From a bacterium (GTDB lineage Bacteria > Patescibacteriota > Minisyncoccia > UBA6257 > GWB1-50-10): a stretch of 64,000 bases of DNA. This document shows positions 7,238 through 63,570 of the stretch, one piece after another (the stretch's first letter is position 1; every line of letters begins with the position of its first letter). Below the pieces are notes generated by a model, which ran no database searches, was not told the origin of the DNA, and saw only the letters and a list, made by a program, of their open reading frames with translations. The position numbers and the translations under genes were made by a program. Where the stretch lies: the NCBI GenBank assembly GCA_002686365.1, contig NZBZ01000004.1:98752-162751 (forward strand), written 5' to 3'.

Positions 7238-8434
7238 ATGAGGAAACAGCTCAAAATTGGCTTGGTACTTCCTTCAATGTATGCGGCACGGCGTTTTGCC
7301 AAGCGTATTTTTGCTCCCAAGGAGCTGCTTGCGGAATTAGGGAATTCTTTTCTAGAGAAGGGGCATAAGGTGTATGCGTATACTTCTCCGGGAGTTCTTC
7401 CTGACAAAATTACTTTTGGCGGAGATTTGGAGTTGGAAAATAAGACTATTCCGTCAGCTTGGGATATGGGCGAGAAAAGCAGGCCTCCTGCTTCTGCTGC
7501 TTCGCAGATTAATATTCGGAATGCGCGCGCATATGAGGCAACTGTTATGAGGCAGGCGGTTTTGGATGCGAATAGACGCGGACTTGATATTCTGCATGTG
7601 TATCTTGGGGATAGTCCGCATCAGTTTGTGCCGTTTGCGAACATGCCAGTCGTATTTACCGTACATGATCCTGTGTGGCCGGGAACGCTTGAAGCATGGT
7701 CTTTTAAGACGTTTGCTCAGCATAATTATATAAACATATCTCATTCACAGGCAGGTCAGTATAAAAAGGCATTTGGATTTCGGAACTCTATCGTGATTCA
7801 TCATGGAGTTGATTTAGATGATTTTTCTTTTTCTGAGAGTCCTCGTGGCGAATATGTTTCTTTTATCGGCCGGTACTTGGCAAAGAAGGGTGTTGAGGAA
7901 GCAATTCGGACAGCGCAGTCATTGAAGATTCCGCTTCTGATGGCCTCGAGTAAGGGGTATCGTACGTCAAAATATTACCAGAATCATATACGTCCTCATC
8001 TTTCTTCTCGGCTTGTCACAAGGGTTGGTTTTTTGACTCCTCATAAGAGAAATGAGTTTCTTCGGAATTCAAAGGCATTTCTTTTCCCAATCAAGTGGCC
8101 TGAGCCGTTTGGAATGGTGATGATTGAGGCAATGGCGTGCGGGACTCCTGTTGTTGCATTCGCAGAAGGGTCAGTGCCGGAAGTTGTAAAGGATGGTAAG
8201 ACTGGGTTTGTTGTAAGGCGTACTCCAGAAGCAAAAGGTAATTATATTGTGAAAAAGATTGGCATGGCAGGATTTAAGGAGGCAGTAAAGAGAGTTTATG
8301 ATATGAGTCCCGAAGAGTACAAGAAGATGCGTAATGAGTGTAGGGCTCATGTTGAGAAGTATTTTACGATTGAGAAGATGGCAGAGAATCATGAGAAGGC
8401 ATATAGGCACTTTATTAAAAGGTGGAAGAAATAG
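7238..8434 (+). CDS. Glycosyltransferase family 4 (paralog)
   Basis: [39 protein letters not shown]. Confidence 0.7.
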
Positions 8435-8457
8435 TAGTTTTTGGTACTATTTTAACA

Positions 8458-9720
8458 ATGCGGCAAACAGAACTTTTTACTAGAACTAGGAAAGAGGCGC
8501 CTAAAGATGAGGTGTCAGTAAATGCGCGGCTTTTAATGCGTGCTGGTTTTGTGAATAAGCTTATGGCTGGGGTATATTCCCTGCTTCCTTTGGGCTTGCG
8601 TGTGCATCAGAAGATAGAGAATATTATTCGTCGAGAGATGGATGCGATCGGGGGGCAGGAGCTTTTAATGCCTACGCTTCAGCCAAAGGCGAATTGGGAT
8701 AAGACAGACAGGTGGGAGACATATGACTCTCTCTTTCGATTTACGAGTCATTACACAAAGAATGAGTATGCTTTAGGTCCTACGCATGAGGAGGTGGTAA
8801 CGCCTCTGGTTCAGGATCAGAATCTCTCGTATAAGGATTTTCCTGTTTATGTATATCAGATTCAGACTAAGTTTCGGGATGAGCCAAGAGCAAAGTCCGG
8901 GCTTTTGAGGGGCAGAGAGTTTTCTATGAAGGATTTGTACTCATTTCATACGAATGAGAAGGACTTGGAGAAGTATTATGAGAAGGCAAGAGATGCGTAC
9001 TTTAAGATTTTTAAAGAGGTTGGACTTGGTGATGTGACGTACTTAACTTTTGCGTCAGGCGGGTCGTTTTCAAAGTACTCCCACGAGTTTCAGACAGTTA
9101 CAGATGCTGGAGAGGATATTATTTACTTGTGTAATAAGTGTAAGGTGGCAGTTAATAAGGAGATTATTCATGAGCAGAAGGACTGCCCAGAGTGCGGAGA
9201 GAAGAAGCTAAAAGAGGAGAAGGCAGTTGAAGTTGGAAATATATTTAAGTTAAAGACTAAGTATTCGTCTGCGTTTGGGTTGAAGTTTAAGGATGAGAAG
9301 GGAAAAGAGGGAGATGTAATAATGGGGTGTTATGGAATTGGGCTGACTCGGCTTTTGGGTACGGTTGTTGAGGCTCATTATGATAAGGATGGGATGATTT
9401 GGCCTGAGGCAGTTGCGCCATTTGCAGTACATCTTATTCGGCTTGGGATAGATTCTAAGGTAGTGAAGTTTGCAGATGATGTTTATAAAAAACTTGAGAA
9501 GAATAATGTTGAAGTTTTATATGATGACAGGGACGCGTCAGCTGGAGAGAAGTTTGCTGATTCAGATTTGATTGGGATTCCTTATCGGGTTGTGGTTAGT
9601 GAGAAGACCCTTCGACAGGCTCAGGGCAAGCTGGAAAAGAAGAAGGTTGAGTTAAAAAAGAGAAGTGAGAAGAAGGAGAAGTTGGTTGGGGTAGATGAGT
9701 TAATGAAGTTGGGGGCATAG
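8458..9720 (+). CDS. proS: Prolyl-tRNA synthetase, short form without the INS editing domain
   Basis: N-terminus MRQTELFTRTRKEAPKDEVSVNARLLMRAGFVNKLMAGVYSLLPLGLRVHQKIENIIRREMD matches bacterial ProRS. A zinc-ribbon CNKCK...CPECGEKK and a C-terminal anticodon-binding region are present. The track's GTG start at 8422 overlaps the upstream gene, so the ATG at 8458 is more likely. Confidence 0.8.
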   Translation: MRQTELFTRTRKEAPKDEVSVNARLLMRAGFVNKLMAGVYSLLPLGLRVHQKIENIIRREMDAIGGQELLMPTLQPKANWDKTDRWETYDSLFRFTSHYTKNEYALGPTHEEVVTPLVQDQNLSYKDFPVYVYQIQTKFRDEPRAKSGLLRGREFSMKDLYSFHTNEKDLEKYYEKARDAYFKIFKEVGLGDVTYLTFASGGSFSKYSHEFQTVTDAGEDIIYLCNKCKVAVNKEIIHEQKDCPECGEKKLKEEKAVEVGNIFKLKTKYSSAFGLKFKDEKGKEGDVIMGCYGIGLTRLLGTVVEAHYDKDGMIWPEAVAPFAVHLIRLGIDSKVVKFADDVYKKLEKNNVEVLYDDRDASAGEKFADSDLIGIPYRVVVSEKTLRQAQGKLEKKKVELKKRSEKKEKLVGVDELMKLGA

Positions 9721-9726
9721 GAAAGA

Positions 9727-9886
9727 TCTCTTTTTCTCGTTCGTAAGTCTCCACACATTAAAATTCTTTATTCGCTCATTACGGCAATTTGCCGCCCTGT
9801 TTCGCTTTGCTCCACGGGCACCCGGCAAATTGTCTATTCGCTCATAGAATTTAAGATGTGTTTCAACACACTCACTCTGAAAAAAA
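9727..9886 (+). repeat. Interspersed repeat family A, copy 1 (~160 bp); other copies at 48329-48485 and 63338-63495
   Basis: The copies are ~95% identical and each starts 1-9 nt after a stop codon (proS, uppS, and the hypothetical gene ending at 63336). The element carries a 12-bp inverted repeat, CGGCAATTTGCCG versus CGGCAAATTGCC, and an internal ATTCGCTCAT direct repeat. No ORF is conserved across the copies. Confidence 0.7.
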
Positions 9887-9957
9887 GTTCTTTCCTAAAG
9901 GGGAAGATGGTTTTTGTAATCTTCTGTGGGGAGGTGGTGGGAGGGCTGTTGGTGGCT

Positions 9958-9996
9958 CACTTCGTCCCGATTGGGGACTCGTGAGCTTTTTTATAT
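9958..9996 (+). terminator. Two-tier terminator hairpin GCTCAC-TTCG-TCCC...GGGAC-TCG-TGAGC plus T-run
   Basis: Followed by TTTTTTATAT. The equivalent hairpin at 63528-63570 has compensatory base changes in the inner stem (GTCCC/GGGAC versus TTCCG/CGGAA). Confidence 0.55.
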
Positions 9997-10037
9997 AAAA
10001 AAATACCCACCAAAGCGTGGGTGCTGGTGGGGTTGAG

Positions 10038-10385
10038 TCAGATGTGGAGGAGAATTGCTGCAGTACCGAGGAACGTGACGATGGCGCAGAAGATTGCGAG
10101 GCAGTTCATTGCTTGGGCAGTTCTCTTGCTCCAAGGTCTTCCTGCATCGTCGTCTATCTGTGCGAATATCCACACGTCCAGATTGAACAGGATGGTGCCG
10201 ATGGCGAACAAGAGTGCCGCCCCGATCCAGTTCGAGATCATGGCGTTTTCTTGTGCGCCTACCATGGCTCCTGAGAGACATATAAACGCTGTGATCAGAC
10301 TGACGAGGCCGGCAATGAAGGTTGCGTCGCGGCCACTGGTCTCGTGATTGCCACTTTTGTGTATTGCGGCAGCAGCGGCGGTCAT
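10038..10385 (-). CDS. Small membrane protein (115 aa); N-terminus paralogous to the 54-aa ORF at 10795-10959
   Basis: The N-terminus MTAAAAAIHKSGNHE... is followed by hydrophobic segments. The local GC content looks clearly higher than the genome background. Confidence 0.45.
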   Translation of the reverse strand: MTAAAAAIHKSGNHETSGRDATFIAGLVSLITAFICLSGAMVGAQENAMISNWIGAALLFAIGTILFNLDVWIFAQIDDDAGRPWSKRTAQAMNCLAIFCAIVTFLGTAAILLHI

Positions 10386-10433
10386 TGTGCGTTCCTTCTC
10401 GGTTAGGCGGCGGATGGCTTGTGTCCGTACGTA

Positions 10434-10751
10434 CTAGCCTCCGAAGATTAGGAAGTAGATGAGCCCTACGGCTCCGCAGAGCGCGTTGACGCCGAGGATC
10501 GTTGCAGCGTTGTAGAGTCTTCTGCGCATGTCGGGCTTTGGCTCGTTCTTTAGCCCTCCCATTCCTATCATCAGGATGAAAATGACACCGATGTAGAGCG
10601 TGAAGCCGGCGGAGTGATACCAGTGCCAGTTCGTGAGGCCTGGGGTTCCGCGTACGGCGAGTACGTTCGCCCAGAAGGAGAAGAATCCTGCAATGAGACC
10701 GAAGACAGTGTACGCGGAGAGCGAGAAGTTTCTTCGAAATGCGTCGGTCAT
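10434..10751 (-). CDS. Small membrane protein (105 aa)
   Basis: Three predicted TM segments (for example GLIAGFFSFWANVLAV and FTLYIGVIFILMIGMGGL). Same strand and same GC-rich block as its neighbours. Confidence 0.45.
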   Translation of the reverse strand: MTDAFRRNFSLSAYTVFGLIAGFFSFWANVLAVRGTPGLTNWHWYHSAGFTLYIGVIFILMIGMGGLKNEPKPDMRRRLYNAATILGVNALCGAVGLIYFLIFGG

Positions 10752-10794
10752 TGTCAGATCCCTTCGGGTTGCGGTGTGTGTGGGTGGTTTTGAG

Positions 10795-10959
10795 TTACGG
10801 GTTGAGGTAGATGTGGTAGAGAATTCCTGCAGTGCCTAGGATCGCGCTGCCCGCGTAGAAGGTTATGATGACTCCTGCGGTGATGTAGGTGATGAGGGCT
10901 ATGGCGCGATCGATGAGCCCATTGTTGCCACTCTTGTGTGTCGCTGCAGCAGCGGTCAT
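10795..10959 (-). CDS. Small membrane protein (54 aa), absent from the ORF track because it is under 60 aa
   Basis: Hand translation gives MTAAAATHKSGNNGLIDRAIALITYITAGVIITFYAGSAILGTAGILYHIYLNP. Its N-terminus is shared with the 115-aa ORF, and its start overlaps the upstream ORF's stop (ATGA). Confidence 0.4.
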   Translation of the reverse strand: MTAAAATHKSGNNGLIDRAIALITYITAGVIITFYAGSAILGTAGILYHIYLNP

Positions 10960-11153
10960 GGCGTGATCCTTTTAAGTGTTGTCGGACAGATGGGAACAAG
11001 TTTGAGTATTGTTATACGCAGCGCTATGGCGCCCACCATAACATCCAGTATGCTGTGAGAGTTGGCAACTCCGTATGCTGTGATCAGCAAGCTTGCGACA
11101 AAGAACAGCATTGTGAAGATGTATAGGGTGGACCACTTGACCTTTGTCTGCAT
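10956..11153 (-). CDS. Small membrane protein (65 aa), first gene of the - strand four-gene mini-operon
   Basis: MQTKVKWSTLYIFTMLFFVASLLITAYGVANSHSILDVMVGAIAL... is a hydrophobic helix. It is divergent from mreB. Confidence 0.35.
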   Translation of the reverse strand: MQTKVKWSTLYIFTMLFFVASLLITAYGVANSHSILDVMVGAIALRITILKLVPICPTTLKRITP

Positions 11154-11237
11154 CTACATGAAGTTCTTTGCCTCCAGGCCTTCAGTTTGGGTCGCTGAAA
11201 TTACTCTACATATTTTTGTTTTTAGTGTCAATTTTTA

Positions 11238-11266
11238 TTGATATCCTTTTTTTCTTGCAGTAGAAT
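11238..11266 (+). promoter_or_regulatory. Sigma-70-like promoter for mreB (-35 TTGATA, 17-nt spacer, -10 TAGAAT) with a near-leaderless start
   Basis: TTGATA at 11238-11243 and TAGAAT at 11261-11266. The mreB ATG at 11276 is only 9 nt after the -10 box. Confidence 0.4.
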
Positions 11267-11275
11267 CAGAGGACT

Positions 11276-12310
11276 ATGACTTTGAAGAAAATAGTAGGAA
11301 TTGACCTTGGAACAGACTCTACAAGGGTGTATTTGCGGAGAGCTGGGATTGTTGTTGATGAGCCGTCTATTGTTGCATTTAATAATAGGACTAATAGGAT
11401 TATTGCGGTTGGTCTTGAGGCTAAGCGTATGATGTCTCGGACTCCTACACACATCACTGCTATTCGTTCTATTGTGCATGGGATTGTTGGGGATTTTGAT
11501 ATGGCTCGGGAGATGCTTCAGAAACTTTTGCAGAATAAGAATCTTCCATGGTCTTGGATGACAGAGGTTGCGCTTTCTGTTCCTACGAATCTTACTGAGG
11601 TTGAGCGGAAGTCATTTGAAGATCTTGTGCGGGAGGCTGGTGCTGGACAGGTTTATTTAGTGGAGCAGCCGTTACTCGCAGCGCTCGGAAGCGGTCTTGA
11701 TATTTATCAGCCAACAGCCTACTTGGTGGTGGATATTGGGGCAGGGACGACTGATATGGCAGTTGTATCTATGAATGGCATTGTGATTTCTAAGCGTTTG
11801 AAGATTGCCGGGAATCATTTTAATAATGAGATTATTAGGGCAGTGCGGGACGAGATGAAGCTTCATATTGGAGAGCCTACTGCGGAGGAAATAAAGATTG
11901 GTGTGGGATCCGCGATTCCGCAGGAGGAGCGGCTTGAGATTATGGTTCGGGGTCGGGATGTGGCATCGGGGCTTCCTCGCGAGCTCACTGTGAAGGATGT
12001 GCAAGTCAGGACGTGGCTTGTTCGGTCCCTGAAGCTTATTCTTGAGAGCGTTCGGGATCTTGTTGAAGAGACTCCTCCGGAGCTTGTTGGAGATGTGCAT
12101 AAAAATGGAATATATATATGCGGAGGAGGAAGTCTTCTTCGCGGAATTGATGAATTGCTCGAGCGAGAGATTGGTGTTGAGGTGAAAGTTGTTGAGGATC
12201 CTCTTCATTGTGTTGCGCGCGGAGCAGGGATGATTGCCGATGACATGAAGACCTACCAGCCGATTCTTAATACATTTTCAAGCCTTGGTATTGGAGATGA
12301 GTCTGAATAA
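11276..12310 (+). CDS. mreB: Rod shape-determining protein MreB
   Basis: MTLKKIVGIDLGTDSTRVYL...; actin-like ATPase motifs; 344 aa. Confidence 0.85.
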   Translation: MTLKKIVGIDLGTDSTRVYLRRAGIVVDEPSIVAFNNRTNRIIAVGLEAKRMMSRTPTHITAIRSIVHGIVGDFDMAREMLQKLLQNKNLPWSWMTEVALSVPTNLTEVERKSFEDLVREAGAGQVYLVEQPLLAALGSGLDIYQPTAYLVVDIGAGTTDMAVVSMNGIVISKRLKIAGNHFNNEIIRAVRDEMKLHIGEPTAEEIKIGVGSAIPQEERLEIMVRGRDVASGLPRELTVKDVQVRTWLVRSLKLILESVRDLVEETPPELVGDVHKNGIYICGGGSLLRGIDELLEREIGVEVKVVEDPLHCVARGAGMIADDMKTYQPILNTFSSLGIGDESE

Positions 12311-23562: not shown

Positions 23563-23952
23563 CTAGGAGGTCGCCGAGAGTTCCGGGTCCTCGGGTTCGT
23601 CATCGAGGAGCGCCATGCTAGCTGCTTGCGGGTCGAAGTGCTCGGGGAGCTTAGTCGTGTCACTATAGCTTGCCCCGAGAAGTTTCGCTCCTGCAAGGTC
23701 TGTCTTGCTAAGATCCGCCCCCCGAAGATCTGCTCCGTGAAGATTCGCGTCTCGGAGATTCGTTTCGAGAAGAGTCGCTCCTCGGAGACTTGCTCCGCGG
23801 AAATCTGCGCCTTGTAGGTTTGCCATGCTTAGGCTTGCCATGCGTAGGTCTGCCCCTGGCGCGTGTACTCCGGGTCCGAGAGCGAGGACGACGGTAACAG
23901 TGAGCCTGCCGTTCTCTTGGTTCAGGGTCGTGATCGTGCGGGGCTTGTGCAT
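23563..23952 (-). CDS. Pentapeptide-repeat protein (129 aa) in a GC-rich islet
   Basis: Tandem A(D/N)LxG pentapeptides (ANLQGADFRGASLRGATLLETNLRDANLHGADLRGADLSKTDLAGAKL). GC content looks far above the genome background. Confidence 0.6.
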   Translation of the reverse strand: MHKPRTITTLNQENGRLTVTVVLALGPGVHAPGADLRMASLSMANLQGADFRGASLRGATLLETNLRDANLHGADLRGADLSKTDLAGAKLLGASYSDTTKLPEHFDPQAASMALLDDEPEDPELSATS

Positions 23953-27056: not shown

Positions 27057-27084
27057 ATATTGTTTAGTATTGTTTAGTGATTTT

Positions 27085-27124
27085 ACGATGCACTTTTAGC
27101 ACGACCGTGCTATAGGTGCATCGT
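27085..27124 (+). repeat. Hairpin element E, downstream copy (ACGATGCAC...ACGACCGTG...GTGCATCGT)
   Basis: A 9-bp outer stem plus a 6-bp inner stem. Direct repeat of 26518-26557. Confidence 0.4.
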
Positions 27125-27699
27125 TGGTTGGTTTTTGATTGATAGATTAATGCTTGAGGGTTTTGGGGATTTGCAGATTCGCGGATTTGCGGATTTATCT
27201 CATTGTTTGTATATTGTTTGTACGTTCTTTGACCTATGGAATGGAGAAAATGCGCTATGTCGTTAAGAAAAGGCGTCAGGCGGCAGGTTCGCAAGAGGCG
27301 CGCTTCTAAGGCGCGCAGAGAGGCTCTGGTTAATGAGCAGTTCTTAAGTCTAGTCGGTCGAATTCCAGGAGAAGGAGAATTGGATCGTCTTGCTGCTCAG
27401 ATATAATTCGGAGATGCTCAGCCCTTGTCTGAGGCATTGGGCTTTGTGGGCGCCTATGTGGTGGCAACTGATGATCGTGATGTCTGGGTAAGTGTCCGCT
27501 TTAATAGCGCCACCAGGCAGATCTTCGGTGTGTCGCGGCCGCCCTCTAATGAGCATCTTGACAGCTTGCACAATCTCAGTGCCTGTGGGGAGTCTTCTGG
27601 TTCTGATTGGGTTTCGTCGTAGACGTCCCGCATGCCTTTATGGATGCGGGACGTTGTCATGTTTAGATAATGCTTATAACTTGAGAAGTTTGGATTTTT

Positions 27700-27733
27700 C
27701 CATGTATCAGTGTACTAGTACACTGATACATGG
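27700..27733. repeat. 34-bp perfect palindrome CCATGTATCAGTGTAC-TA-GTACACTGATACATGG
   Basis: Reverse-complement identity checked base by base. Located ~110 bp upstream of tRNA-Ser, and preceded by an 11-bp-stem hairpin at 27634-27667 (ACGTCCCGCAT...ATGCGGGACGT). Confidence 0.6.
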
Positions 27734-27841
27734 AGTGGGCGGAGCGGACTGCGGAGAGGACTTGAGAAATTTGGGGGTTTGGGTATTGTAAGTGTATTGA
27801 AGGTCGTTTTTTCCGCCAATTGGCGGATTCGGCGTACCAAT

Positions 27842-28217: not shown

Positions 28218-30593
28218 ATGATGGAATTAACAAAAAATTTTAGAAATTTAAATAAAGATGATGTTTTTTTAGCTGGCGGCAAAGGTGCTTCTCTTGGCGA
28301 GATGACGTATGCAGGAATTCCAGTGCCCCCTGGCTTTGTTGTGTTATCTACTACTTTTGATGAATTTATTAAAAAATCTGATTTGGCTCAAGAGATAGAT
28401 GCTATTTTAGACAAAGTTGATCACAAGGAAGTTCATTTGGTTGAAAATGCTTCAGAAAAAATTCAAGGTTTGATTAAAAATGCGGTGATGCCAGAAAATA
28501 TCGCTAAAGAAATCAAAAAAAAGTTCAAACAATTGAATACTGAGTATGTTGCTGTTCGTTCTTCTGCTACTGCAGAAGATGGTGTTGAAAATGCTTGGGC
28601 TGGACAGCTTGACTCATTTTTAAACACGAAAGACGATAATTTATTGGGAAAGATACAACATTGTTGGGCGTCTCTTTTTACTCCGAGAGCAATATTTTAT
28701 AGATTTGAGAAGGGTTTGCACTCAACCAAAATATCAGTAGCCGTAGTAGTGCAGAAAATGGTCAATTCTGAAATTTCAGGCATTGCTTTTTCTGTCCATC
28801 CAATTACAGAAGATCGAAATCAAATTATTATTGAGTCAGGGTTTGGATTAGGTGAAGCTATTGTGTCGGGACAAATTACACCAGATAGTTATGTGGTAGA
28901 AAAAGAACCGAGAAGAATTATTGATATTAATATTGCTACTCAAAGCAAGGGACTTTATCGTATTACCACTGGTGGTAATGAATGGATTGATATTCCTGAG
29001 CCAAAATCATCGTCTCAGGTTCTTTCTGAAGCTCAGATTTTAGAATTTGCTGATTTGATAATGAAAATCGAAAATCACTATGGCTTCCCCTGTGATATTG
29101 AATGGGCATATGAAGACGGGAAATTTTATATTGTTCAAAGTAGACCGATCACCACTCTCTTGAATGAGAAACATAATGATTTAAACAGGTTTACAAATAA
29201 AAATACATCACTTGAGCATGCGGACGGATTGCCTGTGTATTTTGAAATGACAATGGCAGGATTTACCGATAGATTGAGAAATAATAATTTATCATCGTAC
29301 GAAATTGGAATCAGTCACTTCATGAAAGATGAGCTTGATTACATTTCTCTTATTCAAGATCAGAATAAAATTGGTAGCGCAATTATAAAAGATTTTCTAA
29401 ATAATCCATCGAGTATATACAATCTCTATAAAGAATGGGCGATCGGGTACGAAAAAATGCTTGATCGTTTTAGTGTGGTTTTTGATTACGATTTAAAGAA
29501 ATTTAGTGATAAAAAACTTTTGTCATTATCAGATGATCTTTACTCTTTTTATCGCGAAGAGGTGTCAATGCCCGGTTTTACTGATGGCTTTATGTTCTAT
29601 GCCGAGAAGCGCTTGAACGATTTAATAATGGAATATTGCGATATTAATAAATTAAAGAATTTTACAGAAATATTCACAACGCTTACAGCTTCTACTGAAC
29701 CATCATTCTTTAACGAAAAAGAGTCTGATTTAAGTCATGTTTCGGATACAGAGTCAAAAAATAATTTATTAAAAAAATATGCGTGGTTAAATTCAAGTTA
29801 TTCAGGCTATAAACCATATTCAAAGAAAAATCTTGAGGATGACTTAAAAGATGTTAAAGACCCAGCTTTGGCGAAAAAACAATTGTCTGACAATAAATTA
29901 GCAAAGCAGGATTTAATAAAGAAGCATAAATTTAATGATGAGATATTGGCAATAGTTAAGCTAACTGATTTATTTATTAAATGGCAAGATCAAAGAAAGG
30001 TCTACACTCTTTCGTATGCAGTATTGCGAAGCAGGATATTGCATGAAATTGCTCAGCGTTTTAAGTTTGATATAAAACTTCTTGAATTTGCATTAACAGA
30101 AGAACTTCCACTAGTTTTAAATAGAAGTCTCAGTATCGATGTTTTAAAAAATCGTAGAGATAGTGGAGTGTTATTTATTCATAAAAATGGAAAATTGCAG
30201 GAAATTATAGTTGGCGAGGCGTCTGAATCTTTTGTTGCCAAATTGCAGGCTCCAGAAAATAGTGGGGCTTCTGAAATTTCAGGAACAATTGCCTCAAGAG
30301 GTAAAGTTACTGGAAAAGTTAGAATAGTTATGACTGCAAAAAATATAAACGAGGTTGAGGAAGGCGAAATTTTGGTTGCTCCAATGACTAGACCCGAACA
30401 CTTAATAGGCATGAAAAAAGCCGCGGCGATTGTTACTGATGATGGCGGAATCACATGTCATGCGGCAATTGTTTCTCGAGAGCTTGGCAAACCTTGTATT
30501 ATTGGAACAAAGAATGCCACTAAGATTTTAAAAAATGGCGATTTGGTTGAGGTTGACGCGGAAAATGGCGTAGTGAAAATTATTAAGAAGTAA
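28218..30593 (+). CDS. PEP-utilising phosphotransferase, PEP-synthase-like N-terminus and C-terminal phospho-His swivel domain but no PEP-binding TIM barrel (rifampin-phosphotransferase-like architecture)
   Basis: N-terminus: LAGGKGASLGEMTYAGIPVPPGF and VAVRSSATAEDGVENAWAGQLDSF (PPDK_N ATP-grasp). C-terminus: DDGGITCHAAIVSRELGKPCIIGT (PEP-utilisers mobile His domain). The ORF ends immediately after it. The ATG at 28218 is preferred because the track's start at 28161 lies inside repeat C. The gene is noticeably AT-rich. Confidence 0.65.
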   Translation: MMELTKNFRNLNKDDVFLAGGKGASLGEMTYAGIPVPPGFVVLSTTFDEFIKKSDLAQEIDAILDKVDHKEVHLVENASEKIQGLIKNAVMPENIAKEIKKKFKQLNTEYVAVRSSATAEDGVENAWAGQLDSFLNTKDDNLLGKIQHCWASLFTPRAIFYRFEKGLHSTKISVAVVVQKMVNSEISGIAFSVHPITEDRNQIIIESGFGLGEAIVSGQITPDSYVVEKEPRRIIDINIATQSKGLYRITTGGNEWIDIPEPKSSSQVLSEAQILEFADLIMKIENHYGFPCDIEWAYEDGKFYIVQSRPITTLLNEKHNDLNRFTNKNTSLEHADGLPVYFEMTMAGFTDRLRNNNLSSYEIGISHFMKDELDYISLIQDQNKIGSAIIKDFLNNPSSIYNLYKEWAIGYEKMLDRFSVVFDYDLKKFSDKKLLSLSDDLYSFYREEVSMPGFTDGFMFYAEKRLNDLIMEYCDINKLKNFTEIFTTLTASTEPSFFNEKESDLSHVSDTESKNNLLKKYAWLNSSYSGYKPYSKKNLEDDLKDVKDPALAKKQLSDNKLAKQDLIKKHKFNDEILAIVKLTDLFIKWQDQRKVYTLSYAVLRSRILHEIAQRFKFDIKLLEFALTEELPLVLNRSLSIDVLKNRRDSGVLFIHKNGKLQEIIVGEASESFVAKLQAPENSGASEISGTIASRGKVTGKVRIVMTAKNINEVEEGEILVAPMTRPEHLIGMKKAAAIVTDDGGITCHAAIVSRELGKPCIIGTKNATKILKNGDLVEVDAENGVVKIIKK

Positions 30594-30599
30594 TTAAAT

Positions 30600-31427
30600 A
30601 TGCGTGGAGAAGATTTTTTTACAAGACATTCAACCAAACCAAAGGATGAAGATCCAGAATCCTCGGAATTTTCCGGCATTTCTGAAAAAGGGGTTGAACT
30701 TGCAAAAGAGAGAGCAGGAGAAATTTTAGCGAATTTAGAGAAACAAGAAAATGGAACTGTGATGTTAATTAGTGGTGTTTCGGAAATGCCGAGAACAAAA
30801 TCAACGGCCATGATTTATGGTCAGGAAATTAAAAATATAATAGAACTGCAAAAAATAGATGATGTGCTTGTTTTTTTGCCAGAGGATTTAGGGAATATTG
30901 ATGGATATACAAATAAAGTTAATTTTTTGATTGAACAAATTAAAGCAAATCCAAACAAAAAAATAGTATTGGATTTCCCGTTGTTTATTAAAGAACTTTC
31001 TTTCAAAGATAGATGGGCAGATGAAGAAGGAAATTTATCAGAATATACGAAACAATTATTAGAACGAAACAGTGACGATGACGAGGAAGCGATGAAGGAT
31101 TGGTTTGATAATCAAGGCAGAATTGATGATTTAATTGGTCCAAATCCAACTGAAGTTGCGGAGCAGCAATTGGCTGGAATTGAAAGATTAAGAGAGTTTG
31201 CCAAAAAATATATTTCAGACAGGCCATTAGTCATTGGTTCGGTTGGACATAGTTGGAGTTTAGACGCAGTTGCTGTTTATCTGGCAAACAACGGAGAAAT
31301 AAACAAAGAATCGTTTGAGAAAATGAAAGCTAAAATGATTGGAGAAACAAAAATGATTAAACTATCGGAACGAGATGGAAAACAAGTTTTGGAGTATGGA
31401 GATCTTGTAATTCCTTTAGAAAAATAA
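30600..31427 (+). CDS. Hypothetical protein (275 aa), possibly a degenerate histidine-phosphatase (SixA/PGM-like) fold
   Basis: The C-terminal PLVIGSVGHSWSLDAVAVYL resembles the second His motif of the histidine-phosphatase superfamily. The N-terminal RHG motif is replaced (VMLISGVSEMPRTKS). It is 6 nt downstream of the phosphotransferase gene. Confidence 0.4.
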   Translation: MRGEDFFTRHSTKPKDEDPESSEFSGISEKGVELAKERAGEILANLEKQENGTVMLISGVSEMPRTKSTAMIYGQEIKNIIELQKIDDVLVFLPEDLGNIDGYTNKVNFLIEQIKANPNKKIVLDFPLFIKELSFKDRWADEEGNLSEYTKQLLERNSDDDEEAMKDWFDNQGRIDDLIGPNPTEVAEQQLAGIERLREFAKKYISDRPLVIGSVGHSWSLDAVAVYLANNGEINKESFEKMKAKMIGETKMIKLSERDGKQVLEYGDLVIPLEK

Positions 31428-31477
31428 GACAGCGCGTCAATGAAATTGGTACAGCTACATTATTCGTAGGAGCGACG

Positions 31478-31565
31478 GGTGAGGAGGAATCCCACTCCTA
31501 CATTCATTTAGTCATTCAACAATTCCATGGAATTGTTGAATGGGCGGGTGAGCGGGAATCCCACC
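31478..31565 (+). repeat. Repeat family C, copy 2 (same X, palindrome and Y modules)
   Basis: ...GGAGCGACGGGTGAGGAGGAATCCCACTCCTACATTCATTTAGTCATTCAACAATTCCATGGAATTGTTGAATGGGCGGGTGAGCGGGAATCCCACCT... Confidence 0.6.
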
Positions 31566-31594
31566 TCCTCTAGCTAGCCTTAGGTGGGTTTTAT

Positions 31595-31789
31595 ATGAAA
31601 ATTTTTACAAGGACAACAATTAATATTATATCGGTAATTGGTATTACTTTTGTTTCGATTCTTATACAAATGGCAGATAGTAGGTTAACGTCTCATCAAA
31701 ATGAAATTATTATCAAACAAGGTTCTATTAACCAAACGCTGATTGAGCAGGCGGAGATATCTCGCGATTTGTATGACTTGTATGAATAG
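31595..31789 (+). CDS. Small membrane-anchored hypothetical protein (64 aa)
   Basis: An N-terminal TM helix (TINIISVIGITFVSILIQ). AT-rich. Confidence 0.25.
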   Translation: MKIFTRTTINIISVIGITFVSILIQMADSRLTSHQNEIIIKQGSINQTLIEQAEISRDLYDLYE

Positions 31790-32121
31790 CATGGTGATGC
31801 CACATCTCAACCGATTAAGCTGTTTTTAGAAGGTAGAATTGGGAATCAAAGAAGAAGTTATTTTGAATTTGTCTCAAGTACTGATGAATTGATAATAGGG
31901 CGAGATGAATTGAAGGGCGAGACCCCGCATTTTCTTGGATTCAATGCCGAGACAATAAAGAGCGTCTTGTATGTTGTTCAGTTTTTTACGATTATTCTTT
32001 TAATTATTTCACAAAACTGGACTAACAAAAAAGAAGATCATGTCTAAAAAACAAGGTGTTTGAGGATTCTTGTTTTAATAAAACAAGCTTGGCACGCGGA
32101 TTATAAGAGATAAACCCTCCC

Positions 32122-32793
32122 ATGAAAAACCGTTACGAAAATAAGTTAAAAAAATATAACGCGCAAATACTTAATTTGTATCCTGCGCATTTCATTTCAA
32201 GGCTTATTCTTGCTCTTGAAATGAAAAAAATTGAGAAAGAGGGCTTAATCGTATTAGAAATAGGTTGTGGCGAGGGGGATTCGGCAATGCCGATTTTGGA
32301 AAACACTAATCTGCATTTGGATTTGTCTGATGTTTCAGAAGAAATGATTGAGGAGTGCAAATCCAAGTTGAGTTCTTACAAAGACCGTATTAATTATATC
32401 TGCGAAGATGGTTTATCGTATTTACAAAATTGTAAGCCCTACGACATTATATTTTCAGAATGGGTAATTCATAATTTTACTTGGGATGAAAAAAAAGATC
32501 TGTTTAGCGCGATTTACAACAAATTGAATCAGGGAGGATCCTTTTTTCTTATGGATAAAATTTATCCAGCTGAAGGCGCAAAAGAAATGTTTGATACGCA
32601 GATGAAGAGATTTGAATATTTAGAGACTGAAGCAAAAGAAGGAATAGTGAAATACGAAACTCAAGATTGCCTTCCTGAGTTTAAGATGGATGAAAAAAAT
32701 ACAATGGAGGGTCTGAAAGATGCAGGATTCAATGATGTTGTCATTGTTGATAGATTAGAAAGAGATGTGGTTTTAATAGCTAAGAAAGAATAA
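32122..32793 (+). CDS. Class I SAM-dependent methyltransferase
   Basis: Motif I VLEIGCGEGDSAMPILE, followed by the acidic loop and DIIFSEWVIHNF (motif IV region). Confidence 0.6.
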   Translation: MKNRYENKLKKYNAQILNLYPAHFISRLILALEMKKIEKEGLIVLEIGCGEGDSAMPILENTNLHLDLSDVSEEMIEECKSKLSSYKDRINYICEDGLSYLQNCKPYDIIFSEWVIHNFTWDEKKDLFSAIYNKLNQGGSFFLMDKIYPAEGAKEMFDTQMKRFEYLETEAKEGIVKYETQDCLPEFKMDEKNTMEGLKDAGFNDVVIVDRLERDVVLIAKKE

Positions 32794-32826
32794 GTCGTGC
32801 GAGAAAAATCTCATTAAATTTATTGT

Positions 32827-33396
32827 ATGACTAAGATTATACTTCACGGTGGGTTTACTAGTGAGGATAATGAGCTAAATAGGGGATATTATCGTGAAAT
32901 AACCAAAGACTTGAAAGATGGAGCAACTGTTCTGGCGGTTTTATTTGCCAGAGAGAAAGAGGAACATTCAAAACTATTTCAAGATGAAATACAAAAACTT
33001 ACTGCAAGCATAGATAAGCATTTGGATATAGTTCAGGCCTCAGAAGATAAATTTATCAATCAGGTTAAAGAAGCTGATGTGATAGTAATTAGGGGAGGTG
33101 ATACATCTAAGTTAATTAAGACATTTAAACAGTATCCAGACTTTATGGAATCGGCCAGAGATAAGGTGATAGGTGGTTCCTCTGCGGGAGCGTATTTGTT
33201 TTCTAAATATTATCACTCGGCTAGCAAGGGCAAGGTATTTGAGGGATTAGGGATTTTACCTATACGTATTGTTTGTCATCACAACAGCAAGGAGTTCAAG
33301 GTGAAGAAAAGCGCTGTTGAGCAACTAGAAAAATATCCTAATGATTTAGAATTAGTTATTCTCAAAGACTACGAATGGCGAGTGTTTGAGATATAA
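32827..33396 (+). CDS. Peptidase S51-like (dipeptidase E / cyanophycinase family) protein
   Basis: VIVIRGGDTSKLIKTF and VIGGSSAGAYLFS (G-x-S-A-G nucleophile elbow). Confidence 0.45.
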   Translation: MTKIILHGGFTSEDNELNRGYYREITKDLKDGATVLAVLFAREKEEHSKLFQDEIQKLTASIDKHLDIVQASEDKFINQVKEADVIVIRGGDTSKLIKTFKQYPDFMESARDKVIGGSSAGAYLFSKYYHSASKGKVFEGLGILPIRIVCHHNSKEFKVKKSAVEQLEKYPNDLELVILKDYEWRVFEI

Positions 33397-33443
33397 ATCT
33401 TTTTTATCTTGAAACGTATTTGTTACGAATATATCATGGAGAT

Positions 33444-47607: not shown

Positions 47608-48327
47608 TTGAAATGGATAAATAATATGGAAAATGTTCCACAACATGTTGCTGCTATCCCTGATGGGAATAGGCGGTGGGCAAAGAAGCGGGGCCTTCCC
47701 GGTACTGCTGGCCATACAGAAGGGGTAAAGCGTTTTTATGATGTAATGGAGGAGGCGTTTGATAAGGGCGTCAAGTACTTTACGTTTTGGGGCGCATCAG
47801 AGAGTAATCTTACCAATCGTACAAAGGTAGAGGTGAAATTTTTGATGGATATTTTTCAAAATGAGATTTTGCGGCATTTTGATTCAAAGAAGTTTAAGGA
47901 GAATAAGATTCGGGTTCGGGTTCGCGGCAAGGGTGTGGAAATGATTGATAATCCAAAGCTTACTGAGACTGTGAAAAAGCTTGAGGAGGAGTCTGCGGAG
48001 TTTACAGATAAGAACTTAACAATTCTTTTTGGATATAGCGGGACTACAGAGATACGTGAGGCGATTTCTAAAATAAAGGAAGAGGATTTGGAAGTTACTG
48101 ATGAGAATATAAAGAAGTCTTTGTGGACTGGGGATTTGCCGCCAGTAGATTTTGTGATAAGAACTGGAATAGAAGGAGATCCTCATGTTTCTGCTGGATT
48201 TATGATGTGGCAGACAGCAGAGAGTCAGCTTTACTTTACAGAAATGTGCTGGCCTGATTTTGGAAAGAAGGAGCTTGCAAAGGTTTTGGAAGAGTATGGG
48301 GCAAGGGAGAGGAGGTTGGGGAAATAA
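47608..48327 (+). CDS. uppS: Undecaprenyl-diphosphate synthase
   Basis: HVAAIPDGNRRWAKKRGLP... is the canonical cis-prenyltransferase motif. Confidence 0.85.
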   Translation: MKWINNMENVPQHVAAIPDGNRRWAKKRGLPGTAGHTEGVKRFYDVMEEAFDKGVKYFTFWGASESNLTNRTKVEVKFLMDIFQNEILRHFDSKKFKENKIRVRVRGKGVEMIDNPKLTETVKKLEEESAEFTDKNLTILFGYSGTTEIREAISKIKEEDLEVTDENIKKSLWTGDLPPVDFVIRTGIEGDPHVSAGFMMWQTAESQLYFTEMCWPDFGKKELAKVLEEYGARERRLGK

Positions 48328-48328
48328 A

Positions 48329-48485
48329 ATCCTTTTTCTCGTTCGTAAGTCTCCACACATTAAAATTCTTTATTTGCTCATTACGGCAATTTGCCGCCCT
48401 GTTTCGCTTTGCTCCACGGGCACCCGGCAAATTGCCTATTCGCTCATAGAATTTAAGATGTGTTTCAACACACTCACTCTGAAAA
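48329..48485 (+). repeat. Interspersed repeat family A, copy 2
   Basis: Starts 2 nt after the uppS TAA; ~95% identical to copies 1 and 3. Confidence 0.7.
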
Positions 48486-48619
48486 ATAATTTTATTTTTC
48501 TATGGGAAGTCGTTCTAGGTGCTTTTTACAAAGTAACTTTTTTAAGTCGTCTCAAGAAAGAAAAGATGAATTGTGAGTAATAGAATTTTTCCTCATTCTG
48601 TAGTGGGATGGAGGAGGTC

Positions 48620-48648
48620 TGTAGGTAGCCCCGCCAGGGCGGGGCTTT
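48620..48648 (+). terminator. Rho-independent terminator AGCCCCGCC-AGG-GCGGGGCT plus T7, preceded by GGAGGAGGTCTGTAGGT
   Basis: GC-rich hairpin followed by TTTTTTT. Confidence 0.55.
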
Positions 48649-63337: not shown

Positions 63338-63495
63338 CTCCTTTTTCTCGTTCGTAAGTCTCCACACATTAAAATTCTTTATTCACTCATTACGGCAATT
63401 TGCCGCCCTGTTTCGCTTTGCTTCACGGGCACCCGGCAAATTGCCTATTCGCTCATAGAATTTAAGATGTGCTCCAACACACTCACTCTGAAAAA
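63338..63495 (+). repeat. Interspersed repeat family A, copy 3
   Basis: Starts 2 nt after the TAA at 63334-63336. Confidence 0.7.
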
Positions 63496-63527
63496 GGAGT
63501 TTATTCTTATGGGTTTATGGGAGGTCT

Positions 63528-63570
63528 GATGGTAGCTCACTTCGTTCCGGCTCGGAACTAGTGAGCTTTT
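63528..63570 (+). terminator. Two-tier terminator hairpin GCTCAC-TTCG-TTCCG-GCT-CGGAA-CTAG-TGAGC plus T5
   Basis: Covaries with the hairpin at 9958-9996. Preceded by TGGGAGGTCTGATGGTA. Confidence 0.55.

Follow-up and report, generated by a model that had tools for sequence, protein, structure and literature searches.

Four small minus-strand genes between proS and mreB very probably form a real, lineage-specific cassette of membrane proteins in the patescibacterial genome assembly GCA_002686365.1. The stretch of DNA analysed (the window) covers 64,000 nucleotides (nt) of contig NZBZ01000004.1, positions 98,752 to 162,751, and all coordinates below refer to it. The genes proS (8422-9720, +) and mreB (11276-12310, +; Pfam MreB_Mbl, E 2e-113) are separated by 1.55 kb, and a block rich in guanine and cytosine (GC) fills most of this spacer. 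Four consecutive open reading frames (ORFs) for hydrophobic proteins of 65, 54, 105 and 115 residues (aa), here called o65, o54, o105 and o115, were confirmed at the positions given by the original prediction. The 54-aa ORF is indeed missing from the ORF track used there, because it lies below the 60-aa listing threshold. The four tightly packed ORFs, a promoter-like site and an intrinsic terminator make up a minus-strand unit at 10005-11231. No minus-strand terminator was found inside the cassette between the promoter-like site and the terminator at 10005-10022. The unit and its boundaries comprise the following features.

11238-11266 (+): promoter-like site of mreB, back to back with the cassette's site at 11203-11231
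11203-11231 (-): promoter-like site TTGACA-17 nt-TAGAGT upstream of o65, with 10 of 12 matches in a consensus scan (a consensus match alone)
10956-11153 (-): o65, 65 aa, two hydrophobic segments, GC content at third codon positions (GC3) 0.58; the least certain of the four genes
10795-10959 (-): o54, 54 aa, one or two hydrophobic segments; paralogue of both ends of o115
10434-10751 (-): o105, 105 aa, three helices in the AlphaFold2 model
10386-10433 (-): 48-nt spacer between o105 and o115, carrying the Shine-Dalgarno (SD)-like site AAGGAA of o115
10038-10385 (-): o115, 115 aa, three helices; the sole gene with a full-length orthologue (P0003)
10005-10022 (-): intrinsic terminator (hairpin and T-run) 15 nt past the o115 stop, kept in the orthologous contig
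9955-9992 (+): convergent hairpin GCTCAC...GTGAGC with a T-run, a boundary feature outside the cassette, kept in the orthologous contig

The convergent hairpin at 9955-9992 probably terminates proS. Within the cassette, the o65 stop and the o54 start overlap as ATGA. SD-like sites (AAGGA or AAGGGA) stand 6-8 nt 5' of the ATG in o54, o105 and o115; that of o54 is AAGGA, 7-8 nt upstream, and the o105 ATG is preceded by GAAGGGA. No recorded gene has exactly the o65 product, and o65 is called as a partial gene on the European Nucleotide Archive (ENA) contigs L001 and L002. A separate observation concerns the 5' side of o65, where 11153-11175 (-) reads GGAGG-11 nt-ATG-TAG-ATG. This one-codon start-stop lies at a normal SD distance and directly abuts the o65 ATG; it could be a chance arrangement or a re-initiation device.

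Coding evidence for the four frames

In 1000 dinucleotide-preserving shuffles, a single strand never carried four ORFs that start with ATG, span 54 aa or more and have a grand average of hydropathy (GRAVY) of 0.6 or above (maximum 2, mean 0.04). In all four ORFs, GC3 is above the GC content of the first and second codon positions. The order is reversed (0.67/0.49/0.46) in the 81-aa His/Arg-rich ORF at 10754-10999 (-), and gene callers chose the 54-aa frame on L001 and L002, which are independent contigs. The early reading of the His/Arg-rich ORF as an out-of-frame artefact of the same DNA is therefore retained.

Run exhaustively over 1.84 billion representative proteins, phmmer yielded one true homologue of o115, the 120-aa protein P0003 (51-55% identity, E 5.6e-25). 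Two other matches, P0004 and P0005, are repetitive eukaryote-like proteins and were judged spurious on inspection. Two short contigs of other marine metagenomes (L022, L023), one of Tara Oceans origin, encode P0003. Besides P0003, the merged contigs (L023 and L022, 789 nt) contain the 3' end of an o105 orthologue, the matching spacer and SD-like site, and both convergent terminators. The 51 C-terminal codons of this o105 orthologue, located on L023, are open, with a conserved NALCGA-G--YFLIFGG end and a loop 2 that is still basic.

In a nucleotide-only alignment of o115 with its orthologue, all five indels are multiples of three and neither copy contains a stop codon. The mean BLOSUM62 score at non-identical sites is +0.04 in the proposed frame versus -0.53 to -1.21 in the other five, and the hydropathy correlation in the proposed frame is 0.80. 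Comparison of the ratio of non-synonymous to synonymous divergence (dN/dS) over the six frames showed no open frame with a clearly low ratio. Thus, the frame was settled from the indel pattern and the conservativeness of the replacements. As read from a single orthologue, the in-frame indels, the frame-specific conservative replacements and the positive-inside loops described below show o115 to be a predicted coding frame that is retained. The original prediction had looked to comparative genomics for a coding signal, and the orthologous locus supplies one.

In a different reading, the GC-rich block would hold none of these genes: it would encode a large structured RNA that is not translated, or a gene on the plus strand such as the ORF at 10021-10347 (108 aa). 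RNA genes often account for GC-rich islands where the genome is otherwise AT-richer, the host genes lie nearly all on the plus strand, and the plus-strand ORF, antisense to o115 and sharing its wobble position, is free of stops in each lineage (108 aa and 101 aa). However, no Rfam match was found for the island even at E <= 1, and the folding z-scores over 10001-11200 are mostly +1.2 to -1.8, with a minimum of -3.1 in one 200-nt window; the adjacent repeat element has a z-score of -5. There is no requirement on an RNA gene for indels in multiples of three. The plus-strand ORFs do not tile the island, and replacements in the antisense frames are less conservative. Stops in the frame of this plus-strand ORF are possible solely at sense Tyr codons, or at His or Gln codons that follow a T-ending codon. 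No Tyr occurs in o115, and the end of the antisense ORF coincides exactly with the AAT-CAC (N13-H14) site of o115. Thus, the antisense ORF is a by-product of the sense gene, whose codon content restricts stops, and the RNA or plus-strand explanation is very improbable. We conclude that the four minus-strand ORFs are genes as far as their sequences tell, with o65 the least certain.

Predicted topology of the products

All four products are hydrophobic (GRAVY 0.60-1.00), with two, one or two, three and three hydrophobic segments in o65, o54, o105 and o115, respectively. They are predicted to be almost entirely transmembrane (TM) helix, without a soluble domain and without an enzyme or transporter partner. 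The AlphaFold2 helices span residues 17-43, 49-81 and 87-114 in o115 (predicted local distance difference test score, pLDDT, of 55, a low confidence) and residues 2-33, 40-68 and 75-104 in o105 (pLDDT 67.5, likewise low). Over the sequences, 18 Lys and Arg residues fall in predicted inside tails and loops and one falls in the predicted outside loops. This clustering in alternate loops, the positive-inside pattern, is expected for real inner-membrane proteins with the N terminus inside. The basic residues occur at both termini of o65, are concentrated in the N-tail and loop 2 of o105 and are confined to the N-tail and loop 2 of o115. Their distribution suggests an N-in/C-in topology for o65 and an N-in topology for o105.

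One of the identities offered at the outset was pilin-like. The products are small proteins with hydrophobic N-terminal regions, and genomes of the candidate phyla radiation (CPR) are rich in pilins (PMC6744442), as would suit type IV pilin or pseudopilin-like subunits. However, no class III signal motif (G-F/M-T/S-L-I/V-E) was present within the first 40 residues in o65, o54, o105, o115 or P0003 by regular-expression search. The proteins have two to three TM segments and no globular pilin domain, Pfam gave no pilin match, and no pilus assembly genes are adjacent. The pilin identity is hardly credible and was abandoned.

Paralogy of o54 and o115

The N termini of o54 and o115 have a common module, MTAAAAAIHKSGN versus MTAAAATHKSGN (MTAAAA-x-HKSGN). 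This module, already recognized in the original prediction, is also visible in the DNA as 64 nt at 70% identity that begin in the SD region. A shared C-terminal module had been overlooked: FLGTAAILLHI in one protein corresponds to ILGTAGILYHI in the other, with the consensus (F/I)LGTA(A/G)IL-HI. In the DNA, it covers 66 nt at 76% identity and reaches 8 nt past the stop of o115, a point at which o54 continues with the residues YLNP. The idea of N-terminal domain shuffling is not sustained, since the 54-aa protein matches both termini of the 115-aa protein and the difference between them is an internal deletion or insertion. Judged by these alignments, o54 and o115 are tandem paralogues. Either o54 is o115 minus an internal block of ~60-75 residues or o115 is o54 plus that block, and o54 keeps the predicted cytoplasmic N-tail and the last helix.

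The 24 codons shared by o54 and o115 have six synonymous-only and five non-synonymous codon differences (dN 0.12, dS 0.57). The resulting dN/dS of ~0.2 indicates protein-level constraint on the end modules. No additional paralogues of o54 or o115 were found within the 64 kb. A diversity-generating retroelement, considered on account of the repeated modules, was rejected: the repeat copies do not differ specifically at adenines, and no non-cassette ORF of at least 100 aa lies between proS and mreB.

Divergence between the two lineages

The coding sequences of o115 and P0003 share 74% nucleotide identity (dN 0.32, dS 0.35). The full-length dN/dS of o115 is ~0.9 by three methods, and that of the o105 C-terminus is ~0.75. 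Identity between the lineages is ~87-90% over the o105 end, the spacer and the o115 start, ~85% in the terminators and 60-70% in the middle of o115. Despite this sequence change, the basic inside loops are kept. In four further assemblies of the organism analysed here, the locus is close to clonal, and N52H in o115 is the single difference.

The stretch at 10340-10490 (-), made up of the last 17 o105 codons, the 48-nt spacer and the first 14 o115 codons, was also considered by itself. It is ~87-90% identical between the lineages, the remaining coding sequence being 60-75% identical, and its synonymous sites are conserved too. This conservation suggests nucleotide-level constraint or a recent exchange.

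The rate pattern fits either relaxed selection or constrained modules combined with diversifying positions, two states that one orthologue cannot separate. Relaxed selection would be seen if the block were weakly selected or decaying foreign DNA, that is, transcribed and perhaps translated young orphan genes with little selected function that drift to loss. The near-neutral ratios of o115 and the o105 C-terminus agree with such a state. So do the lower identity of the coding DNA (74%) compared with the flanking spacer and terminators (~85-90%), the lack of o115 or o105 relatives outside the one orthologous locus, and the non-synonymous nature of the single polymorphism. However, the frame is kept in both lineages through five in-frame indels with no stops, replacements are conservative in the proposed frame alone, and the basic inside loops are retained. 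The low ratio of the shared modules and the conservation of the SD-like site and the terminator also speak for selected genes. Decay is thus an unlikely account.

About as unlikely is another account, in which the cassette would be a previously unseen, modular family of small membrane proteins whose N-tail and last helix are conserved while the core can vary or be lost. It would be under diversifying selection in an envelope arms race of ultra-small marine CPR cells. The near-neutral dN/dS would then be a mix of strongly constrained end modules and positively selected loops or helices. Such an arms race might concern phage or toxin exclusion, or the interaction with the host cell of an episymbiont.

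Composition and origin of the cassette

The window has a GC content of 0.43, and nearly all of its long ORFs are on the plus strand. In 500-nt windows, GC is 0.54-0.56 over 10001-11000 versus 0.41-0.45 on either side; the profile is not uniform, and the region is GC-richer than its surroundings, as had been claimed. The cassette interval 10038-11153 has a GC content of 0.539 (z = 3.4 relative to every 1116-nt window in the 64 kb), a level reached by 0.3% of the windows, essentially ones that overlap the island.

The genome shows an extreme strand asymmetry, with a GC skew of +0.2 to +0.5 over most of the 64 kb. In plus-strand genes, C makes up 0.06-0.09 of third positions and G+T ~0.7. Five host genes on the minus strand mirror this (third-position A 0.28-0.47, C 0.20-0.33), and third-position C reaches 0.47-0.56 in three of the four island ORFs. 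The island codon shares are 0.86 for TTC, 0.59 for ATC and 0.57 for CTC, compared with 0.13, 0.10 and 0.07 in plus-strand genes and 0.51, 0.42 and 0.27 in the host minus-strand genes. Thus, the preference of the island for C-ending codons is partly ordinary minus-strand bias, which weakens the argument for horizontal transfer from composition. The pooled GC3 of the island (0.66) is nevertheless above that of all five host minus-strand genes (0.33-0.55), and the orthologue has a GC3 of 0.68. From the original proposal of a horizontally acquired module, the lineage-specific block and its high GC3 remain, whereas the overall composition loses part of its force. A foreign origin of the cassette is plausible, not proven. 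Calls of foreign DNA from composition must be made per strand in this genome, where a GC-rich island on the minority strand of a strongly asymmetric sequence is partial evidence only.

Three other segments of the window also depart in composition. An islet at 23563-23952 (-) has a GC content of 0.60 and is a candidate acquired gene; its product is a pentapeptide-repeat protein of 129 aa (Pfam PF00805, E 4.5e-17), and groEL and a LemA gene lie on its two sides. The block at 28300-33400 is an island in the opposite direction, with a GC content of 0.31-0.36 versus 0.43 for the window; it contains genes for a PPDK_N/PEP-utilising enzyme (810 aa), a methyltransferase and a peptidase S51, and an unannotated 275-aa ORF. 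At 27057-27841 (~785 nt, GC ~0.50), short overlapping ORFs of at most 99 aa lie between a gene with a PaaX_M (Cas2-like) domain and tRNA-Ser(GGA). This segment gave no Rfam match even at E <= 1 and may be an unrecognised RNA gene or degraded DNA.

Distribution and insertion

The protein collections searched hold ~15 billion proteins. The word-indexed search covered 5.8 billion protein clusters, and phmmer covered 1.84 billion representatives. In these collections, no relative of o115 or o105 was found beyond the one orthologous locus, and P0003 was the one match in the clusters apart from the sequences of the query itself. JGI metagenome contigs, scanned by protein guide and by DNA pattern, and IMG/VR gave no further copy or extension of the orthologous locus. 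Phage and plasmid records gave no match with tblastn or blastn (50,697 phage records). The 115-aa protein is recorded at NCBI as a hypothetical protein. The cassette is known from two related marine lineages only. On the evidence of these searches, the predicted proteins are a new sequence family with two known orthologous loci.

The nearest relatives of the ProS protein among 185,579 species genomes are metagenome-assembled genomes of Patescibacteria/CPR, at 61% identity or less. The source name of one o105 copy refers to the 0.1-0.22 um fraction of a mesopelagic sample from Tara station 037, which fits ultra-small cells. In three relatives (L005, L006, L007), the gene order is proS-mreB-mreC-mreD-pbp2 with a proS-mreB gap of 20-81 nt, and in a fourth (L012) the gap is 2 nt. 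Since proS is directly followed by mreB in these four, the cassette, the repeat element and the two terminators are a lineage-specific insertion. The proS-side junction was confirmed in an independent assembly (L024). The original prediction had proposed to look for the same block in other genomes; the o115 orthologue and the o105 C-terminus recur at one other locus, whereas the junction in these four relatives lacks the block.

Repeats and terminator motifs near the insertion

A repeat of ~155-165 nt is present in three plus-strand copies of ~97% identity (9721-9885, 48326-48486 and 63341-63495). Each copy lies 3' of a plus-strand ORF and 5' of a terminator hairpin, and two copies begin at the stop codon itself. 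The repeat folds as one long imperfect hairpin (-46.7 kcal/mol, z = -6.3), and the bases directly flanking its conserved core form inverted repeats whose sequence varies from copy to copy. Searches of Rfam, IMG/VR and the relatives' loci did not recover the repeat, and short metagenome contigs break at it. By these features, the repeat looks like a palindromic element of the miniature inverted-repeat transposable element type inserted into pre-existing hairpins, or like a multi-copy structured RNA.

The motif GGAGGNCTGNNGGTNGC occurs four times on the plus strand (2269-2285, 9940-9956, 48613-48629 and 63520-63536), with 0.05 occurrences expected by chance. Each time it leads directly into a terminator hairpin and T-run, after a plus-strand gene and a palindromic element, and it is present in L022. 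The motif may be a lineage-specific terminator-associated module or the 3' end of a small RNA.

Proposed role and alternatives

In the proposed mechanism, the four products would sit together in the cytoplasmic membrane as a small hetero-oligomeric accessory complex. The cassette would have arrived as an autonomous unit, like the morons compared below, with its own promoter, terminator and atypical composition, between two conserved genes. Its most likely role would be protection or exclusion at the envelope, for instance by conferring immunity to a membrane-active toxin or by keeping out phage or foreign DNA. This immunity or exclusion role is put forward tentatively and with low confidence, pilus assembly, lysis and transport being less likely. 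Taken whole, as a blend of the real cassette and this role, the explanation is somewhat favoured.

Several observations weigh against it. The two promoter-like sites in the region compare with 1.2 expected by chance, a chance-level density. The SD-like site of o65 is poorly placed, and o65 has no orthologue evidence. The island shows no mobility genes, flanking direct repeats or tRNA, and its strong third-position skew of C over G matches long residence on the minus strand, not a recent arrival. The relatives that provide the synteny are distant (50-56% ProS identity), and the two closest ones (L003 and L004, 61%) lack the proS-mreB adjacency. The dN/dS of ~0.9 for full-length o115 fits weak as well as diversifying selection, and so does the sole population polymorphism, which is non-synonymous. 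Domains, folds and neighbours gave no clue to the function of the cassette.

Searches of the four proteins and P0003 against Pfam, NCBIfam, PHROGs and PADLOC gave sub-threshold matches only. The best PHROG E-values were 0.012-0.5, to families of unknown or unrelated function. PADLOC gave a single match, of o115 to a generic '2TM effector' model (E 0.044). The Pfam and NCBIfam matches of transporter type (Mntp, E 0.1; CbiM, E 0.011) were far below the cut-offs. A PDB sequence search gave nothing meaningful, and for the o105 model Foldseek found no PDB or BFVD match with E < 1. As to bacteriocin features, no GG occurs in the first 30 residues and no ABC exporter was found among the neighbouring genes.

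According to Pfam searches of ten neighbouring genes, the cassette is flanked by proS on one side and by mreBC, a probable mreD and pbp2 on the other, and glycosyltransferase genes lie further upstream. This setting raises the possibility that the products serve a membrane machine with genes elsewhere in the genome, such as a transporter or the elongasome, as its accessory subunits or assembly factors. Such roles are common among small membrane proteins, and the promoter-like sites of the cassette and mreB are divergent and abutting (11231-11203, -; 11238-11266, +). However, the relatives keep proS-mreBCD-pbp2 without the cassette, and fast evolution is unusual for subunits of a conserved machine. 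No transporter is encoded nearby, so the transporter-accessory identity first suggested finds no partner in these flanks. A subunit role is improbable.

The initial holin-like suggestion corresponds to a remnant phage lysis cassette of holin and antiholin, to which a small hydrophobic toxin with its antidote may be added. The products are small proteins with two to three TM segments, paralogues of unequal length could resemble a holin/antiholin pair, and the unit is apparently autonomous and of atypical composition. However, no endolysin, spanin, integrase or other phage gene is present among the neighbouring genes examined, and there was no PHROG match with E < 0.01, no Pfam match to a holin family, no PADLOC match and no match in the phage records or IMG/VR. 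The last 12 residues have a net charge of 0 in o54, o105, o115 and P0003, and of +2 in o65 only. With three of the four C-termini uncharged, no lysin nearby and no significant PHROG match, the holin suggestion was set aside, and a lysis or toxin unit is considered quite improbable.

Comparison with known systems

Morons, a concept of Hendrix and co-workers, are reportedly autonomous extra genes of prophages that have their own promoter and terminator and an atypical composition. The cassette resembles them in what appears to be its own promoter-like site and terminator, in lying between genes that are adjacent in relatives, in its distinct third-position composition and in being antisense to its neighbours. 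Its products are small membrane proteins, as are many moron-encoded exclusion proteins. However, the cassette lies between the chromosomal housekeeping genes proS and mreB rather than in a prophage, it has four genes rather than one, and it lacks a phage homologue or context in the phage records, PHROGs and IMG/VR.

Holin/antiholin pairs and small bacteriocin immunity proteins are similar to the cassette products in size, in the number of TM segments, in the presence of paralogues of different length and in rapid evolution. Unlike those systems, the cassette is accompanied by no lysin, bacteriocin precursor, double-glycine leader or ABC exporter and has no sequence or fold match to them; its mostly uncharged C-termini are a further difference from holins.

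A survey described 106 CPR-enriched protein families, of which most had poor annotation and 76 contained one or more TM helices (Meheust et al. 2019, PMC6744442). The cassette proteins are like these in being unannotated proteins with predicted TM helices in CPR genomes. The CPR-enriched families are widespread across the CPR, whereas the cassette family is restricted to two marine lineages that are closely related. In CPR genomes, membrane proteins that lack annotation are commonplace, and the cassette is unsurprising to a specialist. It adds one lineage-restricted family of this kind to the CPR, which matters little alone. Mildly unusual are the paralogy of the end modules, the near-neutral overall dN/dS beside conserved non-coding signals, and the C3-rich codon usage in both lineages. 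The locus is also a worked case in which a tiny orphan operon is provable as coding with one orthologue. If its fast evolution reflects an arms race, the cassette would offer a small, testable handle on envelope conflicts in uncultured ultra-small marine bacteria.

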